From: Myxococcota bacterium
GTDB taxonomy: Bacteria > Myxococcota_A > Polyangia > Nannocystales > Nannocystaceae
Direction of reading: 5' to 3'
DNA length: 64,000 nt
Assembly: GCA_039028615.1 (NCBI GenBank)
Contig: JBCCHT010000011.1
Span: 64,001 to 128,000 of the forward strand
The position numbers and the translations under genes are program-made. The notes beneath the pieces are model-generated. The model saw nothing but the letters and a program-made list of their open reading frames with translations, was not told the origin of the DNA and searched no databases. Of this stretch, positions 4,848-13,811 are shown piece by piece. The stretch's first letter is position 1. Every line of letters starts with the position of its first letter.

Positions 4848-5774
4848 TCAGTCCGTGCGCTGGGCTTTTTCTCGGCTCGCCGCGTTCTCCAGGAACCGCT
4901 GCATCACTCGCTTCAGGGCGATGAGGACCACCATGATGAGGACCGCGGACCCGAGGGTCAGCCACCACTGGGAAGACAGGAACAGGGCCCCGATAAAGCC
5001 CAGCACCACCGCCACCGTGAGCACAGGGAAGAGGTAGAAGAACACGTTGAAGGCGAGGACCGCCACCCGAGTCTGGGCCTTGTCGTTGACGTGCGGCCAG
5101 GGGCGCGCTGGCATCGGGACCTGCAGGGCGCCGCAGACCTTCTCGTACGCGTCGCCGTAGGGGTTCTCGAGCACCATCAATCGCTCTGCAGGCACCGTGG
5201 CCTCCACCCTCTCGAGCCACCGCTCAAAGCTCGCCTCGATGCGCTCGGCCTCGGCTTCGGATTCGAAGTGGAACAGCTCGCCGTCCATCGCCACGGGCTC
5301 GCCCCATTGCCGCGTCATCGGGATGATGGCCCCGGGCAGCCCCAGCATCCCCACCACCGGGAGCCGATAGAGGAGTCGGTTCGCCGGGCCGAAGAGGGAG
5401 ACCCCCGGGGCCCTCGACAAGCGGAGGATGCCGTAGACGATCTCGGCCATCGAGGCCCGCCAACGCGCGGCATCCCGCTTGGTCAACATCACCGTGGCGT
5501 CGGGATAGAGCGCCATCAGGTCTTCGTACACGAAGCACGCAGGCGCATCACAGCAGGCCACGTAGCCATCGAAGATGCGCTCCAGCAGCTCCATGCGCCG
5601 CGGATCCCCGCTCGGGAGCCCTCCGAGCTCGATCCACATCTCGAGATCACCGCGGCCCTTCGCCGCGTTCTCGAACAGGGTCTTCATGTGGTAGCAGGGC
5701 GCGCCCAGGTCGTTGAGCGCGGCGTACAGGCTCATCGTCCCCGTGCGTGGAAGTGCAGCACCGATCAGCTTCAC
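4848..5774 (-). CDS. Sulfotransferase-family (P-loop) protein with two C-terminal TM helices
   Basis: KLIGAALPRTGTMSLYAAL..LGAPCYHM, CDAP, YPDATVMLTKRD..W..S, WPHVN. GTG start after GGAGG. Confidence 0.85.
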   Translation of the reverse strand: MKLIGAALPRTGTMSLYAALNDLGAPCYHMKTLFENAAKGRGDLEMWIELGGLPSGDPRRMELLERIFDGYVACCDAPACFVYEDLMALYPDATVMLTKRDAARWRASMAEIVYGILRLSRAPGVSLFGPANRLLYRLPVVGMLGLPGAIIPMTRQWGEPVAMDGELFHFESEAEAERIEASFERWLERVEATVPAERLMVLENPYGDAYEKVCGALQVPMPARPWPHVNDKAQTRVAVLAFNVFFYLFPVLTVAVVLGFIGALFLSSQWWLTLGSAVLIMVVLIALKRVMQRFLENAASREKAQRTD

Positions 5775-5856
5775 AGCAGGCCCTCCCGGCCGGTGGCGAT
5801 CGTACACCGAAACCCCGGACGGGGGCGGGAGTGTGCTCGGGCGGCAGCTCAGGGAT

Positions 5857-6276
5857 TCACGCCGTGCTCGTAGGGTGTGTGCTGCAGCCGTATTGGGGAC
5901 ATCCGTACCCAAAGCCCCTCGGAGTCACCCGGCTGCAATTCGAGCAACGGACCTTCCTCGGCTGTTGAATGACGTACTCATCGCCCAGAAAGACCTCCGC
6001 AATGAAAGACTTGGCATGCCCGGCGTCTACAATGCCCGTCAGCACGAAGTCGTAGAACGTCAGCGTTCGACCGCAGGGGCACGTGTACTTGGCAAGGTAG
6101 TGATCATCGTCGGCGAGGGCTCCCGGCTTCAGATCGAGCAGCCGCTCTGTCTTCGCCCTTTCTTCCGCATCAGACTTCGTGAACCTCTCGGGGTCCTCGA
6201 GTTCCGACTTTGGTACCGTTCGGTCTTTGAATTCCTGTTCGGTGATCGATGAGATGGCGTAGCGTTTGTCTTCCAT
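5857..6276 (-). CDS. Hypothetical zinc-ribbon-like protein
   Basis: GGAGG RBS; CPC, CSNC and CPQYGC motifs; lower GC. Confidence 0.7.
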   Translation of the reverse strand: MEDKRYAISSITEQEFKDRTVPKSELEDPERFTKSDAEERAKTERLLDLKPGALADDDHYLAKYTCPCGRTLTFYDFVLTGIVDAGHAKSFIAEVFLGDEYVIQQPRKVRCSNCSRVTPRGFGYGCPQYGCSTHPTSTA

Positions 6277-8274: not shown

Positions 8275-8844
8275 CTAGAAGTAGTAGCGAATCTTGAACG
8301 AGAAGTCCCCGTGCGGCAGATCGGGGTACACCAGGTACGGCGCCCACGAGCCTTCGACCATGGTGTCCAGCGGCACGGTCTTCCAGTGAAAACCCAGGCC
8401 GAGGATCGGCAGTCGCATGAACATGCCGACGCCACCGCCCCCGCGATAGCGGTCGTCGTAGTGCCGCCCGTGGTAGTAGCCGCGCCCCGCCCAGAAGGCC
8501 ATGCCGAGGCCGATGCCGAGGTAGGGCAGGAAGTCCATGGTGCTGTTGGAGACGAAGGTGCCCGGGTGCCAGAGGTAGTCGACGCCGAGGCGGCCGTGGC
8601 CGTGGTGGAAGGGGGCCCAACCCAGGTCAGCCTGGATGGCGTGGTTGGGGGCCATGAAATACTTGAGCGAAGCACCCATGGGGCCGCCGAGGCTGAGGCC
8701 GACGCCCAGGTTGCCGCCCTTGCCGCGGATCTTGTTGCCCGGGGTGGGCGCTGCTTCGGCGTCGGTGCTGATGCCCACCGTCGCCAGGCCGATGCCCGCC
8801 GCCAGGGTGTAGCCGAACCACTTGCCTCGTGTGCTTGCCTTCAT
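8275..8844 (-). CDS. Small outer-membrane beta-barrel protein (DUF3996-like)
   Basis: Signal peptide, LGVGLSLGGPMGASLKYF, alternating beta strands, C-terminal RYYF; GGAGG RBS. Confidence 0.8.
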   Translation of the reverse strand: MKASTRGKWFGYTLAAGIGLATVGISTDAEAAPTPGNKIRGKGGNLGVGLSLGGPMGASLKYFMAPNHAIQADLGWAPFHHGHGRLGVDYLWHPGTFVSNSTMDFLPYLGIGLGMAFWAGRGYYHGRHYDDRYRGGGGVGMFMRLPILGLGFHWKTVPLDTMVEGSWAPYLVYPDLPHGDFSFKIRYYF

Positions 8845-9011
8845 TGCCGTCCTCCCACGTGCGCGGGTCGATAGGCGACGCCGCTGGGATCGTCGAGACG
8901 ATCGGCGAGGACCATCCATGCATTCGGAGGACAGGTCAATCGACACAGCGCGATTCGAAGCACAGAGGGGACGGGGTTCCGCAGGGCTGCTGGACACTTC
9001 GATGATTGTAG

Positions 9012-9638
9012 TCAAAAAGCGTGGTGCAGCTCGATCCGCCAGTGTTCGGGGCGATCGGCTGCATCGGCGGGCACGGTTTCGACTGTGGGCCGTCCTACGT
9101 CTGCGGCACGAGCAAGAGCAATGGCGGTCTCCAGCATGGGGCGAGGCCTGAGTTCGGGCCGCGCTCGCAAGGCACTGCGCCTCAACTGAGGCACTTCGAG
9201 TCGAAGTTCGTTTTTCGCCGAGGGTGTACGGGCGAGCAACAGCGCAGCTGCCGACGCTTCGTTGTGGGGGGGAGTCGCATCCTGAGAAAAAATCACGAGC
9301 ACGCGGTCGTGATCGGCGAGCAACCCCATCGCCTCGAGCAAGGTCATGGCGAGCGTGGCGGCGCCGGCATGAACGACTCCTACCGCCAAGCCCGGCGCGA
9401 CAATTCGACGGAGCGCCGAGCCGGGGCCGAGCACGATCTTCGATCCCACCGGAACACCTACGACCCACGGGAGCTCGGCGAGCGAGTCTGCGGTCCGTTC
9501 GACGAGCGAGCCGAGCACGTGGGCGAGCGCCCGAGTGGAGAGATCGGCGGCGAGACGTTCGGCGCGTGGCAGCAGCTCGGCAACCGGCGGACCCGAGTCC
9601 GCGTCCCACCAGGCGGCGGCCTGGATGTGGGCCGGCAT
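9012..9638 (-). CDS. Degenerate beta-ketoacyl synthase chain-length-factor-like protein
   Basis: AGAATLAMTLLEAMGLL...VLVIFSQDATPP...AAALLL resembles the ApeC/Ketoacyl-synt_2 core. Start overlaps the upstream stop (TGATG). Confidence 0.65.
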   Translation of the reverse strand: MPAHIQAAAWWDADSGPPVAELLPRAERLAADLSTRALAHVLGSLVERTADSLAELPWVVGVPVGSKIVLGPGSALRRIVAPGLAVGVVHAGAATLAMTLLEAMGLLADHDRVLVIFSQDATPPHNEASAAALLLARTPSAKNELRLEVPQLRRSALRARPELRPRPMLETAIALARAADVGRPTVETVPADAADRPEHWRIELHHAF

Positions 9639-10504
9639 CAGGCGCGAGCCTCGAGCAACAGGGCCACGTGGTGGCCACCCGGAGAGAACGCGTGCACCAG
9701 CGCTCGGTCGTGCTCCAGCTCGTGGCGTGCCGCATCCGGGGTGTAGCCGGCGACCAGCGCCGCCGCGGCGAGCACCGCATCGATGGCCCCCGCGGCGGCT
9801 CCTTCGGTGGGCACTGCGGACCGCGTCGTACAGGACGGCACCTGCGGCCAGCGCTCTTCGATCACGCGACGCTCGGCGTCGGCGTGCGCGGGTTGATCGT
9901 CGGTCGCGAACCGGTGGACGTAGCCGAGGGCGGGCGAACCGACGGCTGCCCAGGCGCCATCCATCGCTCGCGTCACCGCGGTCTCGTCGAGGGTCTGAGC
10001 GTCGGTGTTGCCGGTCGCCTCGGCACTCGCGGCGAGCCGGACGAAGGCGTCGCCGTGTTTCTCGACGAGCACCAGCGCGCCCTGATCGTCGTCGATGCCT
10101 CCGACCAGGACGGCATCGGCCAAAGACGCTCGGAGCATGCGCTCGGCGGATGCCAACGCCTTTGCCCCGCCGGCTCCGGTCGCGGCGACGTGATAGGCCG
10201 GACCCGCCACGCCCGCTCGGCGGCGCACCAGGCCCAGCACGGACGACAAGCGGGTCAGCGGTTGATCGATGGTGGGCGCACAGCTGCCCAGGATGACGGC
10301 GACCCTCGAAGCTCCCCAGCGCGCACATGCATCGGCGCAGTGCGAGCCCAGGTCGTCGAGCAGTGCACTCGCGACGGCTTCCGGCTCGAGGGCGCGAGCG
10401 GCCGGAGTCGTTGCAGCCGCTTCGTGCAATCGGTCGAGCAGGACGCCCGCTTCGTCACCCCCGGGATGACGCAGCGACCACGCCGTGAGGGGAAACCCAG
10501 CCAT
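9638..10504 (-). CDS. Degenerate (non-catalytic) FabF/ApeO-like beta-ketoacyl synthase
   Basis: RWGASRVAVILGS, GPAYHVAATGAGGAKALASAERML..LADAVLVGGID, GAAAGAIDAV and AFSPGGHHVALLL track the KS fold. Catalytic Cys and both His are absent. Confidence 0.75.
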   Translation of the reverse strand: MAGFPLTAWSLRHPGGDEAGVLLDRLHEAAATTPAARALEPEAVASALLDDLGSHCADACARWGASRVAVILGSCAPTIDQPLTRLSSVLGLVRRRAGVAGPAYHVAATGAGGAKALASAERMLRASLADAVLVGGIDDDQGALVLVEKHGDAFVRLAASAEATGNTDAQTLDETAVTRAMDGAWAAVGSPALGYVHRFATDDQPAHADAERRVIEERWPQVPSCTTRSAVPTEGAAAGAIDAVLAAAALVAGYTPDAARHELEHDRALVHAFSPGGHHVALLLEARA

Positions 10505-10511
10505 GAGAAGG

Positions 10512-12086
10512 CTAGCGACGCCCGCCGGACTTCTTGCCCCGGGTGCTCTTCTTCTTCGCCGCCGGGGCTTTCTTCGCGCTCTTCTTCGCAGCCGGGGCCT
10601 TCTTCGCGCTCTTCTTCGCCGCCGGGGCTTTCTTCGCGCTCTTCTTCGCAACCGGGGCCTTCTTCGCGCTCTTCTTCTTCGCCGCGGGGGCTTTTTTCGC
10701 GCTCTTCTTCGCCGCCGGAGCCTTCTTCGCGCTCTTCTTCGCGGCGGGGGCCTTCTTCGCCGCCGGGGCCTTCTTCGCGCTCTTCTTCGCCGCCGGAGCC
10801 TTGGCCGCCTTCTTCTTGGCGGTCGGCGCCTTCGCCGTCTTCTTCGCCGCGGGGGCCTTTGCCGTCTTCTTCGCGGCCGGAGCCTTCGCGGCCTTCTTCG
10901 CCGCGGGTGCCTTTGCCGTCTTCTTCGCGGCCGGTGCCTTCGCGGCCTTCTTCGCCGCGGGGGCCTTCGCCGTCTTCTTCGCGGCCGGTGCCTTCGCGGC
11001 CTTCTTCGCCGCGGGGGCCTTCGCCGTCTTCTTCGCTGCCTTCTTCGCCGCGGGGGCCTTTGCCGTCTTCTTCGCTGCCTTCTTCGCCGCAGGCTCTTGC
11101 TTCGCGCTTTTCTTCGCTACCGGAGCCTTCTTCGGTGCAGGAGCTTGCTCCGTGCTCTTCTTCGCCGCCGGGGCCTTTGCTGGCGCTTTCTTGGCGTTCT
11201 TCTTCGCCGCCGGAGCCTTCTTCGCGCTCTTCTTCTTCGCCGTGGGGGCCTTCGCTGCCTTCTTTGCCGCGGGGGCCTTCGCCGTCTTCTTGGCGGCCTT
11301 CTTCGCCTCAGGCTCTTGCTTCGCGCTCTTCTTCGCTACCGGAGTTTTCTCCGTGCTCTTCTTCGCCGCCGAGGCCTTCGCTGCCTTCTTTTTTGCTGGC
11401 GCTTTCTTGGCGCTCTTCTTCGCCGCCGGAGCCTTGGCCGCCTTCTTCTTCGCTGCCTTCTTCGCTGCGGGTTTGGTCTCGGCCTTGTCCTCGGACTCGC
11501 TCACCGACTCCTCCGAAGCGGGTTCGGGAGCAGCATCGGCGGCCTCACCATTCTCGCCGCCCGCCGTCGAATCGTCCGCCTTTGCCTCGTCCTCGGCCGC
11601 GGGCTCGGCCTTCTTGGCGCTCTTGTTCTTGCCGGCCTTCTTCTTGCTCGCCGCTTTCTTCTTCTTGCCGGACTTCTTGGCCTCGGTCTCCTCGACGACC
11701 TCGGCCTCTTCGGCGGGCGCAGCTTCCTCTTCGTCCACCTCCCAGAACCCGATCTGCGTCCCACCGGGATCTTCGACGATCGCCAGCGCACCGAAGCCGG
11801 GCACGGGCGTGTAGTCGACGACGACCTCGCCACCGGCCCCACGCACCTTGCGGAGCAGGGCCTTGATGTTGGGCACGCCGACGTAGGGGACCCAGTGCGA
11901 GGGGCGGCTGTCGTCGGGGTTGGGCTGGAGGCCACCGTCGAGGCCGGAGGGGGTGCGGATCTGGGTGTAGCTGGATTCACCAACGTCGACGTCGACGAAG
12001 TCCCAGTCGAACAAGGCGTCGTAGAAGCTACGGACCTTGGCGGGGGCAGTCGTGTTGAGCTCGAAGTGGACGAAGGCGTGGCGCAT
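10512..12086 (-). CDS. VOC (glyoxalase/bleomycin-resistance) domain fused to an acidic linker and a histone-H1/AlgP-like Lys-Ala-Pro tail
   Basis: FVHFEL..FYDALFDW...WVPYVGV...GGEVV...DPGGTQIGFW, then more than 300 aa of AAKKxAKKAP repeats. Confidence 0.9.
   Translation of the reverse strand: MRHAFVHFELNTTAPAKVRSFYDALFDWDFVDVDVGESSYTQIRTPSGLDGGLQPNPDDSRPSHWVPYVGVPNIKALLRKVRGAGGEVVVDYTPVPGFGALAIVEDPGGTQIGFWEVDEEEAAPAEEAEVVEETEAKKSGKKKKAASKKKAGKNKSAKKAEPAAEDEAKADDSTAGGENGEAADAAPEPASEESVSESEDKAETKPAAKKAAKKKAAKAPAAKKSAKKAPAKKKAAKASAAKKSTEKTPVAKKSAKQEPEAKKAAKKTAKAPAAKKAAKAPTAKKKSAKKAPAAKKNAKKAPAKAPAAKKSTEQAPAPKKAPVAKKSAKQEPAAKKAAKKTAKAPAAKKAAKKTAKAPAAKKAAKAPAAKKTAKAPAAKKAAKAPAAKKTAKAPAAKKAAKAPAAKKTAKAPAAKKTAKAPTAKKKAAKAPAAKKSAKKAPAAKKAPAAKKSAKKAPAAKKSAKKAPAAKKKSAKKAPVAKKSAKKAPAAKKSAKKAPAAKKSAKKAPAAKKKSTRGKKSGGRR
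10515..11475 (-). repeat. Coding tandem repeats (27-33 bp units) encoding AAKKSAKKAP / AAKKTAKAP / AAKKAAKAP
   Basis: Repeated CTTCTTCGCCGCCGGGGC-type units on the + strand. Confidence 0.95.
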
Positions 12087-12197
12087 CGAGGAAAGCTCCG
12101 GGTTGGGCGCCCGTATTACTACGCAGCCCGAGGGGCATCAATGTGGCGGATTCCGTGACCGTGCCTCGACGACCCCGGGCTGCTACCGTGAGGGCCA

Positions 12198-13811
12198 ATG
12201 GCCGTTTTGCGCGCTGCTGTGTGCCTGTGCTTGGGGGGTCTGGCGGCCTGCCTCGCCGAGCCGCTGCCTCCCGACTACGGGGGAGACGCGGTGTGGGCCC
12301 CGATCGACTTCGAGGGATCGGCCGATCGCAACGAGCCGGTGGGACCGGTCGACCCCGACGCGCAGCGACCCGCAGGGCCCATCCAGCTGGTCGATGTCAG
12401 CGATGCGGCGGGGCTGTCGGGGGTGGCCGCGGGGGGCAATACCCACGGGGTGGGCGTGGCCTTTGCCGATCTCGACGGCGACGACTGGGCCGATATCGTG
12501 GTGATCAACGGCACGAGCAACGTGACGGGCCAGAACTTTCCCTCGCGGATGCTCCGCAATCGCGGCGATGGCACCTTCGAGGACGTGACCGAGGCCTCGG
12601 GCCTGGGCGCTGCGCTCGGCGGCCTCGATGGCTACTCGATCGCCACCGGCGACGTGGACGGCGATGGAGACATCGATCTGTACGTAGGGGCTCAACCTAC
12701 CGATCGGCTGCTGCGCAACCAGGGCGACGGCACCTTCATCGACGACACGGCGGCCTCGGGTGCAGGCGGGCCTCCGTCCGAGCCAGCGCTGGTCGGCGAC
12801 GGCAAGAGCAAGGTGGTGTCGATGGGCGACGTGGACGACGACGGCGACCTCGACATCGTCTCCGCCTCGAGCACCCTCCCCTTCCCCGGGGCGTACCTGC
12901 TGCGCAACGAAGGCGATGGCTCCTTCGTCGACGTCACCGAGGACAGCGGGGTGCAGATCAACCCCTCGGGCAATCCCTGCGCGGTGATGTGGAGCGACTA
13001 CGACACCGATGGCGACCGCGACCTCTGGATCTGGAACGACCGCGGCGGCAAGATCTTGCTGGCCAACGAGGGCGGCCGGCTCCGCGACGCGACGGCGGCG
13101 GCCGGCCTCGACGCGGTGCAGATCTTCAACCCGATGGGCATCGACGGCGCCGACATCGATCACGACGGCGACCTCGACTACTACGTCTCGAACATCGGCG
13201 ATAACCCGCTGCTGCGCAACAACGGCAACGGGACCTTCGTGGACATCACCGATCGGGCGGGCACGGGGGGCCAGTATGGCTGGGGCCTGGGCTTCGAGGA
13301 CTTCGACGGCGACGGCTGGGCGGACATCTTCGTGGCGCAAGAAGACGATCGCCCGGAGCTGGTGTTCCACAACCGCGGCGAGAGCCCGCCCGCGTTCGAC
13401 GAGATCGCGGTGCCCCACCCGGCCGTGCTCCACACCGGGGCCGCCCACAACGTGGCGGTGGCCTTCGCCGACTTCGACCACGACGGCCGCACCGACGCCC
13501 TGACCGCCCGCACCGATGGTTCTCGCGTCACGCTGTATCGCAACGAGACCGATCTCGGCACCCACGGCACGCTGGACGTGGTGATCGACCGCGAGGCGGT
13601 CGGGGCCCGCATCGCAGTGGCAACCGGCGATCTGGTGCAGTTCGAGGACATCACGGGCGGCTCGAGCCGCGCCTCGAACAACGAGCTGAGCGCACGCTTC
13701 GGGCTGGGTCAGTACCTGGGAGCCGACTGGGTCGCCGTGCTGTGGCCCAGCGGCGGTCAGTCGGTGGTCCGCAACGTCGGGGCGGGACAGCGCCTGCGGT
13801 TCACCGAGTGA
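12198..13811 (+). CDS. CRTAC1-family FG-GAP repeat lipoprotein with a C-terminal ASPIC/UnbV domain
   Basis: Lipobox LAAC, repeated D(L/V)DGDGDxD and RNxGDGTFxD motifs, C-terminal GARI...RFGLG...VLWPSG. Confidence 0.92.
   Translation: MAVLRAAVCLCLGGLAACLAEPLPPDYGGDAVWAPIDFEGSADRNEPVGPVDPDAQRPAGPIQLVDVSDAAGLSGVAAGGNTHGVGVAFADLDGDDWADIVVINGTSNVTGQNFPSRMLRNRGDGTFEDVTEASGLGAALGGLDGYSIATGDVDGDGDIDLYVGAQPTDRLLRNQGDGTFIDDTAASGAGGPPSEPALVGDGKSKVVSMGDVDDDGDLDIVSASSTLPFPGAYLLRNEGDGSFVDVTEDSGVQINPSGNPCAVMWSDYDTDGDRDLWIWNDRGGKILLANEGGRLRDATAAAGLDAVQIFNPMGIDGADIDHDGDLDYYVSNIGDNPLLRNNGNGTFVDITDRAGTGGQYGWGLGFEDFDGDGWADIFVAQEDDRPELVFHNRGESPPAFDEIAVPHPAVLHTGAAHNVAVAFADFDHDGRTDALTARTDGSRVTLYRNETDLGTHGTLDVVIDREAVGARIAVATGDLVQFEDITGGSSRASNNELSARFGLGQYLGADWVAVLWPSGGQSVVRNVGAGQRLRFTE

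Follow-up and report, generated by a model that had tools for sequence, protein, structure and literature searches.

A trimmed, catalytically dead ketosynthase and chain-length-factor pair is retained behind a VOC-histone-H1-like gene in three genera of Myxococcota

The window analyzed here is a stretch of 64,000 nucleotides from a Myxococcota bacterium (assembly GCA_039028615.1, contig JBCCHT010000011.1, positions 64,001 to 128,000). Three closely packed genes on its minus strand include remnants of a ketosynthase (KS) and of a chain-length factor (CLF), called KS* and CLF* in the following. Both proteins descend from ApeO and ApeC but fail the defining features of these families; the pair has lost the condensation reaction and, judging from the residues replaced, probably also the docking of acyl carrier protein (ACP). 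Selection on KS* and CLF* is purifying yet relaxed. It is very probable that the two proteins have a selected function, and they are predicted, with good though lesser confidence, to heterodimerize. That they constitute an obligate non-catalytic heterodimer, serving as a scaffold that binds a protein on its surface, is the explanation which we favor by a modest degree. The three genes are:

10512..12086, minus strand: gene 1, VOC domain with acidic linker and Lys/Ala/Pro-rich histone-H1-like tail, 524 aa
9638..10504, minus strand: gene 2, KS*, a trimmed, catalytically dead ApeO-derived ketosynthase, 288 aa
9012..9638, minus strand: gene 3, CLF*, a trimmed ApeC-derived chain-length factor without the ACP-docking Arg pair, 208 aa

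Reading of the open reading frames gave the order VOC plus Lys/Ala tail (12086-10512), KS (10504-9638) and CLF (9638-9012), with no internal stop. Genes 1 and 2 are separated by 7 bp and genes 2 and 3 overlap by 1 bp in TGATG, so that direct inspection of the sequence confirmed the packing, junctions and intact frames described in an earlier reading made from the sequence only (the sequence-only reading). The GC-rich codons noted there apply to genes 1 and 2 (GC content at third positions, GC3, 0.86 and 0.81), whereas gene 3 is lower than implied (0.73); the gene downstream has a GC3 of 0.90.

The structural model of KS* has a pLDDT (predicted local distance difference test) of 94 and a predicted double-thiolase ketosynthase fold. 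Foldseek placed ApeO at the top, with 7f28_B (E 3e-16, template modeling score 0.82) and 6qsp_A (E 8e-16, 0.83), in line with the FabF/ApeO-like, and hence thiolase-like, fold that had been proposed. The best family model was the ApeO-type NF006618, to which KS* scored 60 bits against a cutoff of 407, while the active ortholog from genus g10 reached 416 (genera are given as g1, to which the window genome belongs, g10, g13, g14, and g15). For the catalytic residues, 22 active ape-type KSs, every one with an intact Cys-His-His triad, served as comparison set. In the alignment with active relatives, the TACSS site reads ATGAG in KS* with G110 at the Cys position, the first His is replaced by F199, and the Lys/His site reads R228...T233, with Arg replacing Lys and the second His gone. 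Residue counts were taken from an alignment of 45 homologs and orthologs. The Cys is kept in none of them (Gly 36, Glu 7, Arg 1, gap 1), which contradicts the possibility that close orthologs still carry the triad, and the second His is present only in the divergent P0051. The claimed loss of all three residues thus holds for the window genome (G110, F199, T233) but is not general, as 35 of the 45 sequences retain the first His. At the position of the gating Phe of ApeO (PMC8358021), Pro is found in 33 sequences including the window KS*, followed by Ser (6), Ala (4), Arg (1), and Gly (1), and the surface loop His described in the same paper is missing from the g1 rows of the alignment. Four deletions were observed in KS*, namely in an N-terminal loop, in the lid helices, in a C-terminal loop, and between GGID and the next strand; the last of these had been noted in the sequence-only reading and amounts to 33 residues relative to active relatives. 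In g15, most of the second KS domain is gone. No fused form of the dead KS was found among 7994 longer candidates, which is weak evidence.

The model of CLF* comprises one thiolase domain, for which ApeC chains tied at the top (7f28_C, Z 10.7; 6qsp_B, Z 10.3) with type III polyketide synthases (PKSs; Z 10.9). This agrees with the trimmed ApeC-type factor suggested for gene 3. CLF* is ~31% identical to the g10 CLFs, which match ApeC and pass PF13723; CLF* itself has a single thiolase domain and ApeC descent and scores 18.4 bits for this family, below the cutoff of 25. It is without the ~30 residues that carry the SVHN motif in active CLFs, and the adjoining KS is dead, so that an active partner is missing. 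All eight active g10 CLFs examined carry RRR at the ACP-facing site, aligning with Arg30/Arg31 of Acinetobacter ApeC, a pair proposed for ACP docking (PMC8358021). In dead CLFs these two sites are mostly Leu (23/31) and Ala (24/31), respectively. A PurE match of CLF* alone (E 0.6) was rejected, and a search of its profile against PDB sequences yielded a chance helical-repeat match as the sole result.

Full-length orthologs are present in all six genomes of g1 and in none of the 35 other genomes tested. Paraliomyxa miuraensis (L044) has the same locus, and g1 is likely to be Paraliomyxa of the family Nannocystaceae. Within g1, the order of tail gene, KS*, CLF*, and downstream gene is conserved. 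In g15, a mini-KS of 177-202 aa lies directly behind the tail gene in seven of eight genomes, the missing one being 77% complete, and is continued by a mini-CLF of ~182 aa and a YceI gene; hhalign detected homology of the two small proteins, though weakly (88% and 26%). They may represent a minimal thiolase-fold dimer. No Pfam match was obtained for this pair of ~185 aa each (L090:6633-7190, L091:6644-7198, L099:9174-9776, L081:10007-10564). In the single g13 genome, the tail gene is followed by a dead KS of 279 aa and a CLF, and contig L034 shows FG-GAP, VOC-H1, a full-length dead KS of 377 aa, and a CLF of 247 aa. Altogether, the trio is retained in 14 of 15 genomes over the genera g1, g13, and g15, which bears out the expectation of synteny. 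The tail gene stands immediately 5′ of the dead KS in all 14 genomes with the pair and in contigs L029, L031, L032, and L034, while the gene downstream of the trio varies from genus to genus. In loci long enough for both, KS* or CLF* was never found alone, and the stop-start overlap is retained in 16 of 16. The 50% library added 147 proteins to the list; Cys-His-His was complete in 119 of them, and the remaining 28 include fragments as well as over ten dead forms, 223-389 aa long. In samples of 301 genomes of the class and 301 of the phylum, no match from outside g1 came near the g1 scores, the best being g10 KSs.

Neither in-frame stops nor frameshifts occur in either gene at any of 16 loci (nine g1-type, seven g15), and both frames are also intact in g13 and L034. 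Codon models on trees gave omega values of 0.20 for KS* and 0.25 for CLF* in g1 and of 0.20 for both genes in g15, compared to 0.20 and 0.25 for the active g10 genes and 0.06-0.16 for neighbors. Omega of 1 was rejected throughout, with twice the log-likelihood difference at 209-511 for the dead genes; with dN/dS at ~0.2, far below 1, the sequences do not show the value near 1 expected of simple decay. The equality of the tree-based values of dead and active genes is not trusted, because GC-rich third positions are probably saturated. Pairwise estimates by YN00, which gave no value for 29 of 63 chosen pairs, were 0.13-0.36 for the dead genes at dS 0.8-2.1, 0.05-0.11 for active KS and CLF, and 0.02-0.07 for neighbors. 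Mean identity in g1 was 56% for KS* and 52% for CLF*, against 71-75% for neighbors, and in g15 49% for the mini-CLF, against 77%.

A likely ancestral state is found in g10, where the ortholog of the VOC-tail gene has an MMPL gene on one side and an active KS-CLF pair on the other; beyond the pair come genes for an ApeP-like dehydratase, FabG, and a second KS, then a halogenase-like gene and YceI. The active g10 KSs have 383-389 aa, and the g10 proteins match ApeO (E 1e-70) and ApeC (E 1e-6). VOC and KS are adjacent in six of 11 g10 genomes; the arrangement could not be assigned in one. Apparently complete ape-like clusters were seen in g10 at L098:4055-14119 (G080) and in L069, L082, L088, and L108, and no ACP gene was spotted in the g10 cluster stretches examined. 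Many active ape-type KSs have 570-690 aa (P0096, P0104, P0105, P0107, P0126, P0151, and others), and the two examined over their whole length, P0126 and P0151, are natural KS-CLF fusions among active relatives. Around KS*, the ACP, reductase, dehydratase, and second KS of an ApeO-type cluster are missing, and the earlier statement that no ACP, FabG, dehydratase, or AMP ligase stands beside the trio was borne out. tblastn searches of the window genome yielded no ape-type MMPL, ApeP dehydratase, AMP ligase-dehydratase, or second CLF, and its best ACP, FabG, and FabF matches lie on another contig. At E 1e-25, no ape-type KS was detected in 12 of the 15 genomes of g1, g13, and g15, nor a further one in the window genome; intact ones occur elsewhere in genomes G005, G002, and G045. 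An aryl-polyene hybrid cluster is described from P. miuraensis (PMC9960870), and the accessible part of that paper makes no mention of a ketosynthase or histone. A careful tree built from 41 KSs united the 11 dead rows in one clade (100/99), which joins g10 and G011 (98/98); the intact KSs of G005 and G002 lie apart from it. The approximately unbiased test rejected an origin by duplication of these intact clusters (p 0.043 and 0.014), with a model that is susceptible to long-branch pull. The simplest reading of the trees is that catalysis was probably lost once and that separate shrinkages followed, with long-branch attraction as a caveat. g15 still has the YceI gene of the ancestral cluster 3′ of the pair.

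Gene 1 consists of three parts:

11733..12086, minus strand: VOC (glyoxalase-fold) domain, aa 1-118, Rv0577/KbpA-like, one copy; PF00903 with 23.7 bits (cutoff 20.6)
11475..11732, minus strand: acidic linker, aa 119-204, 25 Asp/Glu in 86 aa
10515..11474, minus strand: polycationic low-complexity tail, aa 205-524, with 117 Lys, 124 Ala, and 32 Pro in 320 aa

The nearest solved relative of the VOC domain is Rv0577 (PDB 3oxh, E 5e-19) and the closest NCBIfam model is KbpA, with 45 bits, below the equivalog cutoff of 250. Homology to the VOC fold is evident; the tandem-VOC architecture of Rv0577/KbpA is not found in this single-domain protein. Like these proteins gene 1 has VOC homology, and a VOC protein that binds another protein has a precedent in KbpA, a binder and inhibitor of the kinase AfsK (PMC6988585). 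Unlike them, it has one VOC domain instead of two, scores far under the KbpA cutoff, and is fused to a charged tail of 400 aa. Lys, Ala, and Pro make up 273 of 320 tail residues, as in Lys/Ala/Pro repeat tails, and tail length among orthologs ranges from ~65 to more than 450 aa. H1-like tails are reported to bind DNA in Ku and to organize polyphosphate granules in AlgP (PMC3553676, PMC9239181). In composition and repeat type, aa 205-524 resemble AlgP (PMC9239181) and M. smegmatis Ku and Hlp (PMC3553676); unlike in those proteins, the head is a VOC domain, and binding of DNA or polyphosphate by the tail is only putative. In the window genome, 64 reading frames contain at least 13 Lys per 40 residues. 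H1-like-tail proteins (e.g., C17:201741, C46:11441, C4:241537, and C36:716 in G000) are often located at contig ends, where the repeats interrupt assemblies. No clear ribosome-binding site precedes KS* in the window, suggesting translational coupling to gene 1, and KS* and CLF* are likely to be co-transcribed with the VOC-H1-tail gene.

Taken together, these observations led us to the following scenario. An ape-like cluster (MMPL, VOC-H1, KS, CLF, dehydratase, FabG, second KS, halogenase-like, YceI) would mostly have been lost in an ancestor of g1, g13, g15, and L034, while KS and CLF would have stayed under the VOC-H1 promoter and lost catalysis, probably once. Independent shrinkage to 377, 362, 288, 279, 262, and ~185 aa would then have proceeded toward the N-terminal thiolase half. 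The dead pair would bind some protein on its surface rather than acyl-ACP in the old pocket, and the VOC tail might tether the complex to DNA or polyphosphate. All dead lineages retain the N-terminal thiolase half of both proteins, matching lid deletions, and the fixed stop-start overlap, and it is therefore that we read the pair as a heterodimeric scaffold. Both proteins lost matching helical lid segments and retained the strand and helix of the GP-x-Y/AG region, which is the dimer core of KSs.

Several observations weigh against this explanation, both for the pair and for its tie to VOC-H1. The CLF* model is the weaker one (pLDDT 64, residues 142-208 below 50), its C-terminal third being poorly modeled alone, and alignments revealed no derived surface motif common to all dead lineages. 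In a quick tree of 51 rows (nine near-duplicate and four outgroup rows dropped, 23 added), the 24 dead rows on one side were supported by only 87 and had long branches, and the dead P0197 fell outside this group near g10, as did the shortened P0093 with intact triad. The pairwise omega of the dead genes is two to five times that of active orthologs and above that of neighbors too, and ongoing shrinkage together with a mean mini-KS identity of only 42% in g15 resembles erosion. As to VOC-H1, its ortholog in g14 has no adjoining KS, it is split from the active KS in four of the 11 genomes of g10, and tailed VOC clusters occur commonly in Myxococcota. By eye, roughly 25 of the 64 Lys-rich frames are H1-like tails on unrelated domains, one of them on a second VOC protein. 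Adjacency to VOC-H1 was inherited, since the active VOC-KS-CLF order of g10 predates the catalytic loss, and dependence on a shared promoter-like element alone could explain it. The dedicated partnership with VOC-H1 put forward in the sequence-only reading is accordingly no more than putative: VOC-H1 and KS were neighbors before catalysis disappeared, g14 and g10 provide exceptions, and such tails occur on unrelated proteins. The VOC domain is still the best candidate partner, but that VOC-H1 binds the pair directly appears doubtful. We regard as rather unlikely the three-part regulatory module in which a dead KS-CLF heterodimer sits on the VOC domain, with the H1-like tail anchoring it to nucleoid or polyphosphate, and equally so that such a module is conserved in several Nannocystaceae genera with intermediates from active enzyme to 185-residue scaffold.

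The signs of relaxation also fit eroding passengers, jobless genes kept by translational coupling behind VOC-H1 and by selection against misfolded or truncated products and downstream polarity. Besides the relaxed omega, a codon tree length about twice that of neighbors, progressive in-frame deletion, lower GC3, and the overlap of the CLF* end with a promoter-like element, a possible constraint, speak for it. We nevertheless consider it unlikely, as, at dS values close to 1 or higher, none of 16 loci has acquired a stop or frameshift and three genera keep the pair in 14 of their 15 genomes, with the single miss in the 77% complete genome. Useless genes are usually lost fast in bacteria. Furthermore, downstream genes differ by genus and the one in g1 has its own promoter-like element, so that polarity is no common cause.

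The non-catalytic repurposing proposed earlier is supported and a scaffold is plausible, but the option of a ligand sensor has been weakened: the pair no longer has the pocket-lid segments, the gating Phe, or the ACP-docking residues, and g15 is without most of the second KS domain. An acyl-ligand sensor is therefore unlikely. A variant in which the opened active site binds a small molecule or metal through conserved histidines and signals to VOC-H1 draws on the g1-type KS*, where 42-44 of 45 sequences have His instead of Asn or another residue at positions 13, 150, 197, 265, 271, and 279, on the frequent retention of the first catalytic His, and on a His content of 3.9% versus 2.1% in active g10 KS. 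The equivalents of H197, D242, and H271 presumably form a cation site in FabF, which the literature searched did not confirm. With 6 of 11 His columns at 90% conservation, no more than for Gly (13 of 25), with the catalytic His itself lost from the window genome, and with g15 proteins devoid of the whole region (His 1.4%), this variant seems quite improbable. It is also conceivable that the pair acts in trans as a damper of fatty-acid or polyene synthesis, by ACP sequestration or by poisoning active KSs via subunit exchange. ApeO-ApeC binds ACP1 with a Kd of 7.4e-8 M (PMC8358021), and G005, G002, and G045 do contain intact ape-type KSs; replacement of the docking Arg pair of active CLFs, loss of the loop His, and the lack of ape-type KSs in 12 of the 15 genomes make this very unlikely. 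Finally, KS* might catalyze a non-Claisen reaction without Cys, considering its confident fold and the His and Arg partly kept near the old site. These residues vary among orthologs and lineages and are absent in g15, and there are no biosynthetic neighbors in common, so that new chemistry is most unlikely of all to account for the pair. Having weighed these alternatives, we retain the surface-binding scaffold as the modestly favored explanation.

The surroundings of the trio contain the following further features:

12115..12141, minus strand: conserved promoter-like element 5′ of gene 1, TTGATG ... TAGTAAT, from an alignment of 12 upstream regions
9005..9015, minus strand: the 11-base TTGACTACAAT overlapping the CLF* stop, invariant in 9/9 loci
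8275..8844, minus strand: downstream neighbor, 189 aa, which follows the trio in no genus but g1, and in three g1-type contigs
12198..13811, plus strand: divergent neighbor, FG-GAP/ASPIC-UnbV repeat protein, a locus marker in g1, g13, part of g15, and contig L034

The element at 12115..12141 is a candidate promoter of gene 1 by its conservation, and a sigma-70 scan found no promoter, this element included. An excess of terminators in the scan arose from the antisense of the gene 1 Lys repeats. Between TTGACTACAAT and the 189-aa gene lie two further conserved blocks, TGCAT and CGTC, and TTGACTACAAT likely belongs to a separate promoter for this gene. The 189-aa protein matches no Pfam or NCBIfam family, is conserved with 58-74% identity among g1-type loci, and is likely an outer-membrane protein because of its signal-peptide-like start and terminal Phe. 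A second conserved block in the divergent intergenic region, CACGGTAGCAGCCC (12160-12190), may be the promoter of the FG-GAP gene. Within 8 kb of the trio, a cytochrome P450 (1468-3039, plus strand) and an open reading frame with a sulfotransferase domain (4848-5912, minus strand) were observed, which are not conserved beside the trio except for a distant P450 (31%) in L044. In part of g1 (L029, L043, L044), genes that we take from their sequence to be GDP-mannose-dehydratase-like and glycosyltransferase-like lie 3′ of the trio. Long reading frames on the other strand or in other frames (e.g., 9224-11866, plus strand) were dismissed as shadows of repeats and high GC.

The family provides a graded natural series, from active KSs of 383-389 aa through the dead lengths given above to ~185 aa, with the ancestral cluster extant, which makes the origin and retention of a pseudoenzyme directly testable and points to a possible minimal thiolase-fold dimer core. 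These genes carry the annotation 3-oxoacyl-ACP synthase and should not be counted as biosynthetic capacity.

To our knowledge, known dead KS subunits all serve a live partner. The open-access literature yielded no pair with both KS and CLF dead and no pathway, and no work on this locus, Paraliomyxa papers being judged by title. With ApeO-ApeC (6QSP, 7F28; PMC8358021), the pair shares the best structure and sequence matches of gene 2, the gene order, the overlap, and the half-size partner. It differs in that both subunits are non-catalytic, with Cys, second His, gating Phe, lids, and ACP-docking residues lost, and in that the remaining cluster genes were not found in the window genome; compared to the active g10 proteins, KS* is ~95 and CLF* ~25 residues shorter. 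The anammox proteins amxFabF2/amxFabFmut are a case of a dead KS beside a live one (bioRxiv 10.64898/2026.05.19.726425) and, like the chain-length factors of type II PKSs, resemble the pair described here as broken-triad proteins of KS fold retained as structural partners. In those systems, however, a live partner and an ACP pathway exist, whereas here neither remains: both subunits are dead and the pathway is gone, yet selection retains the pair in three genera.

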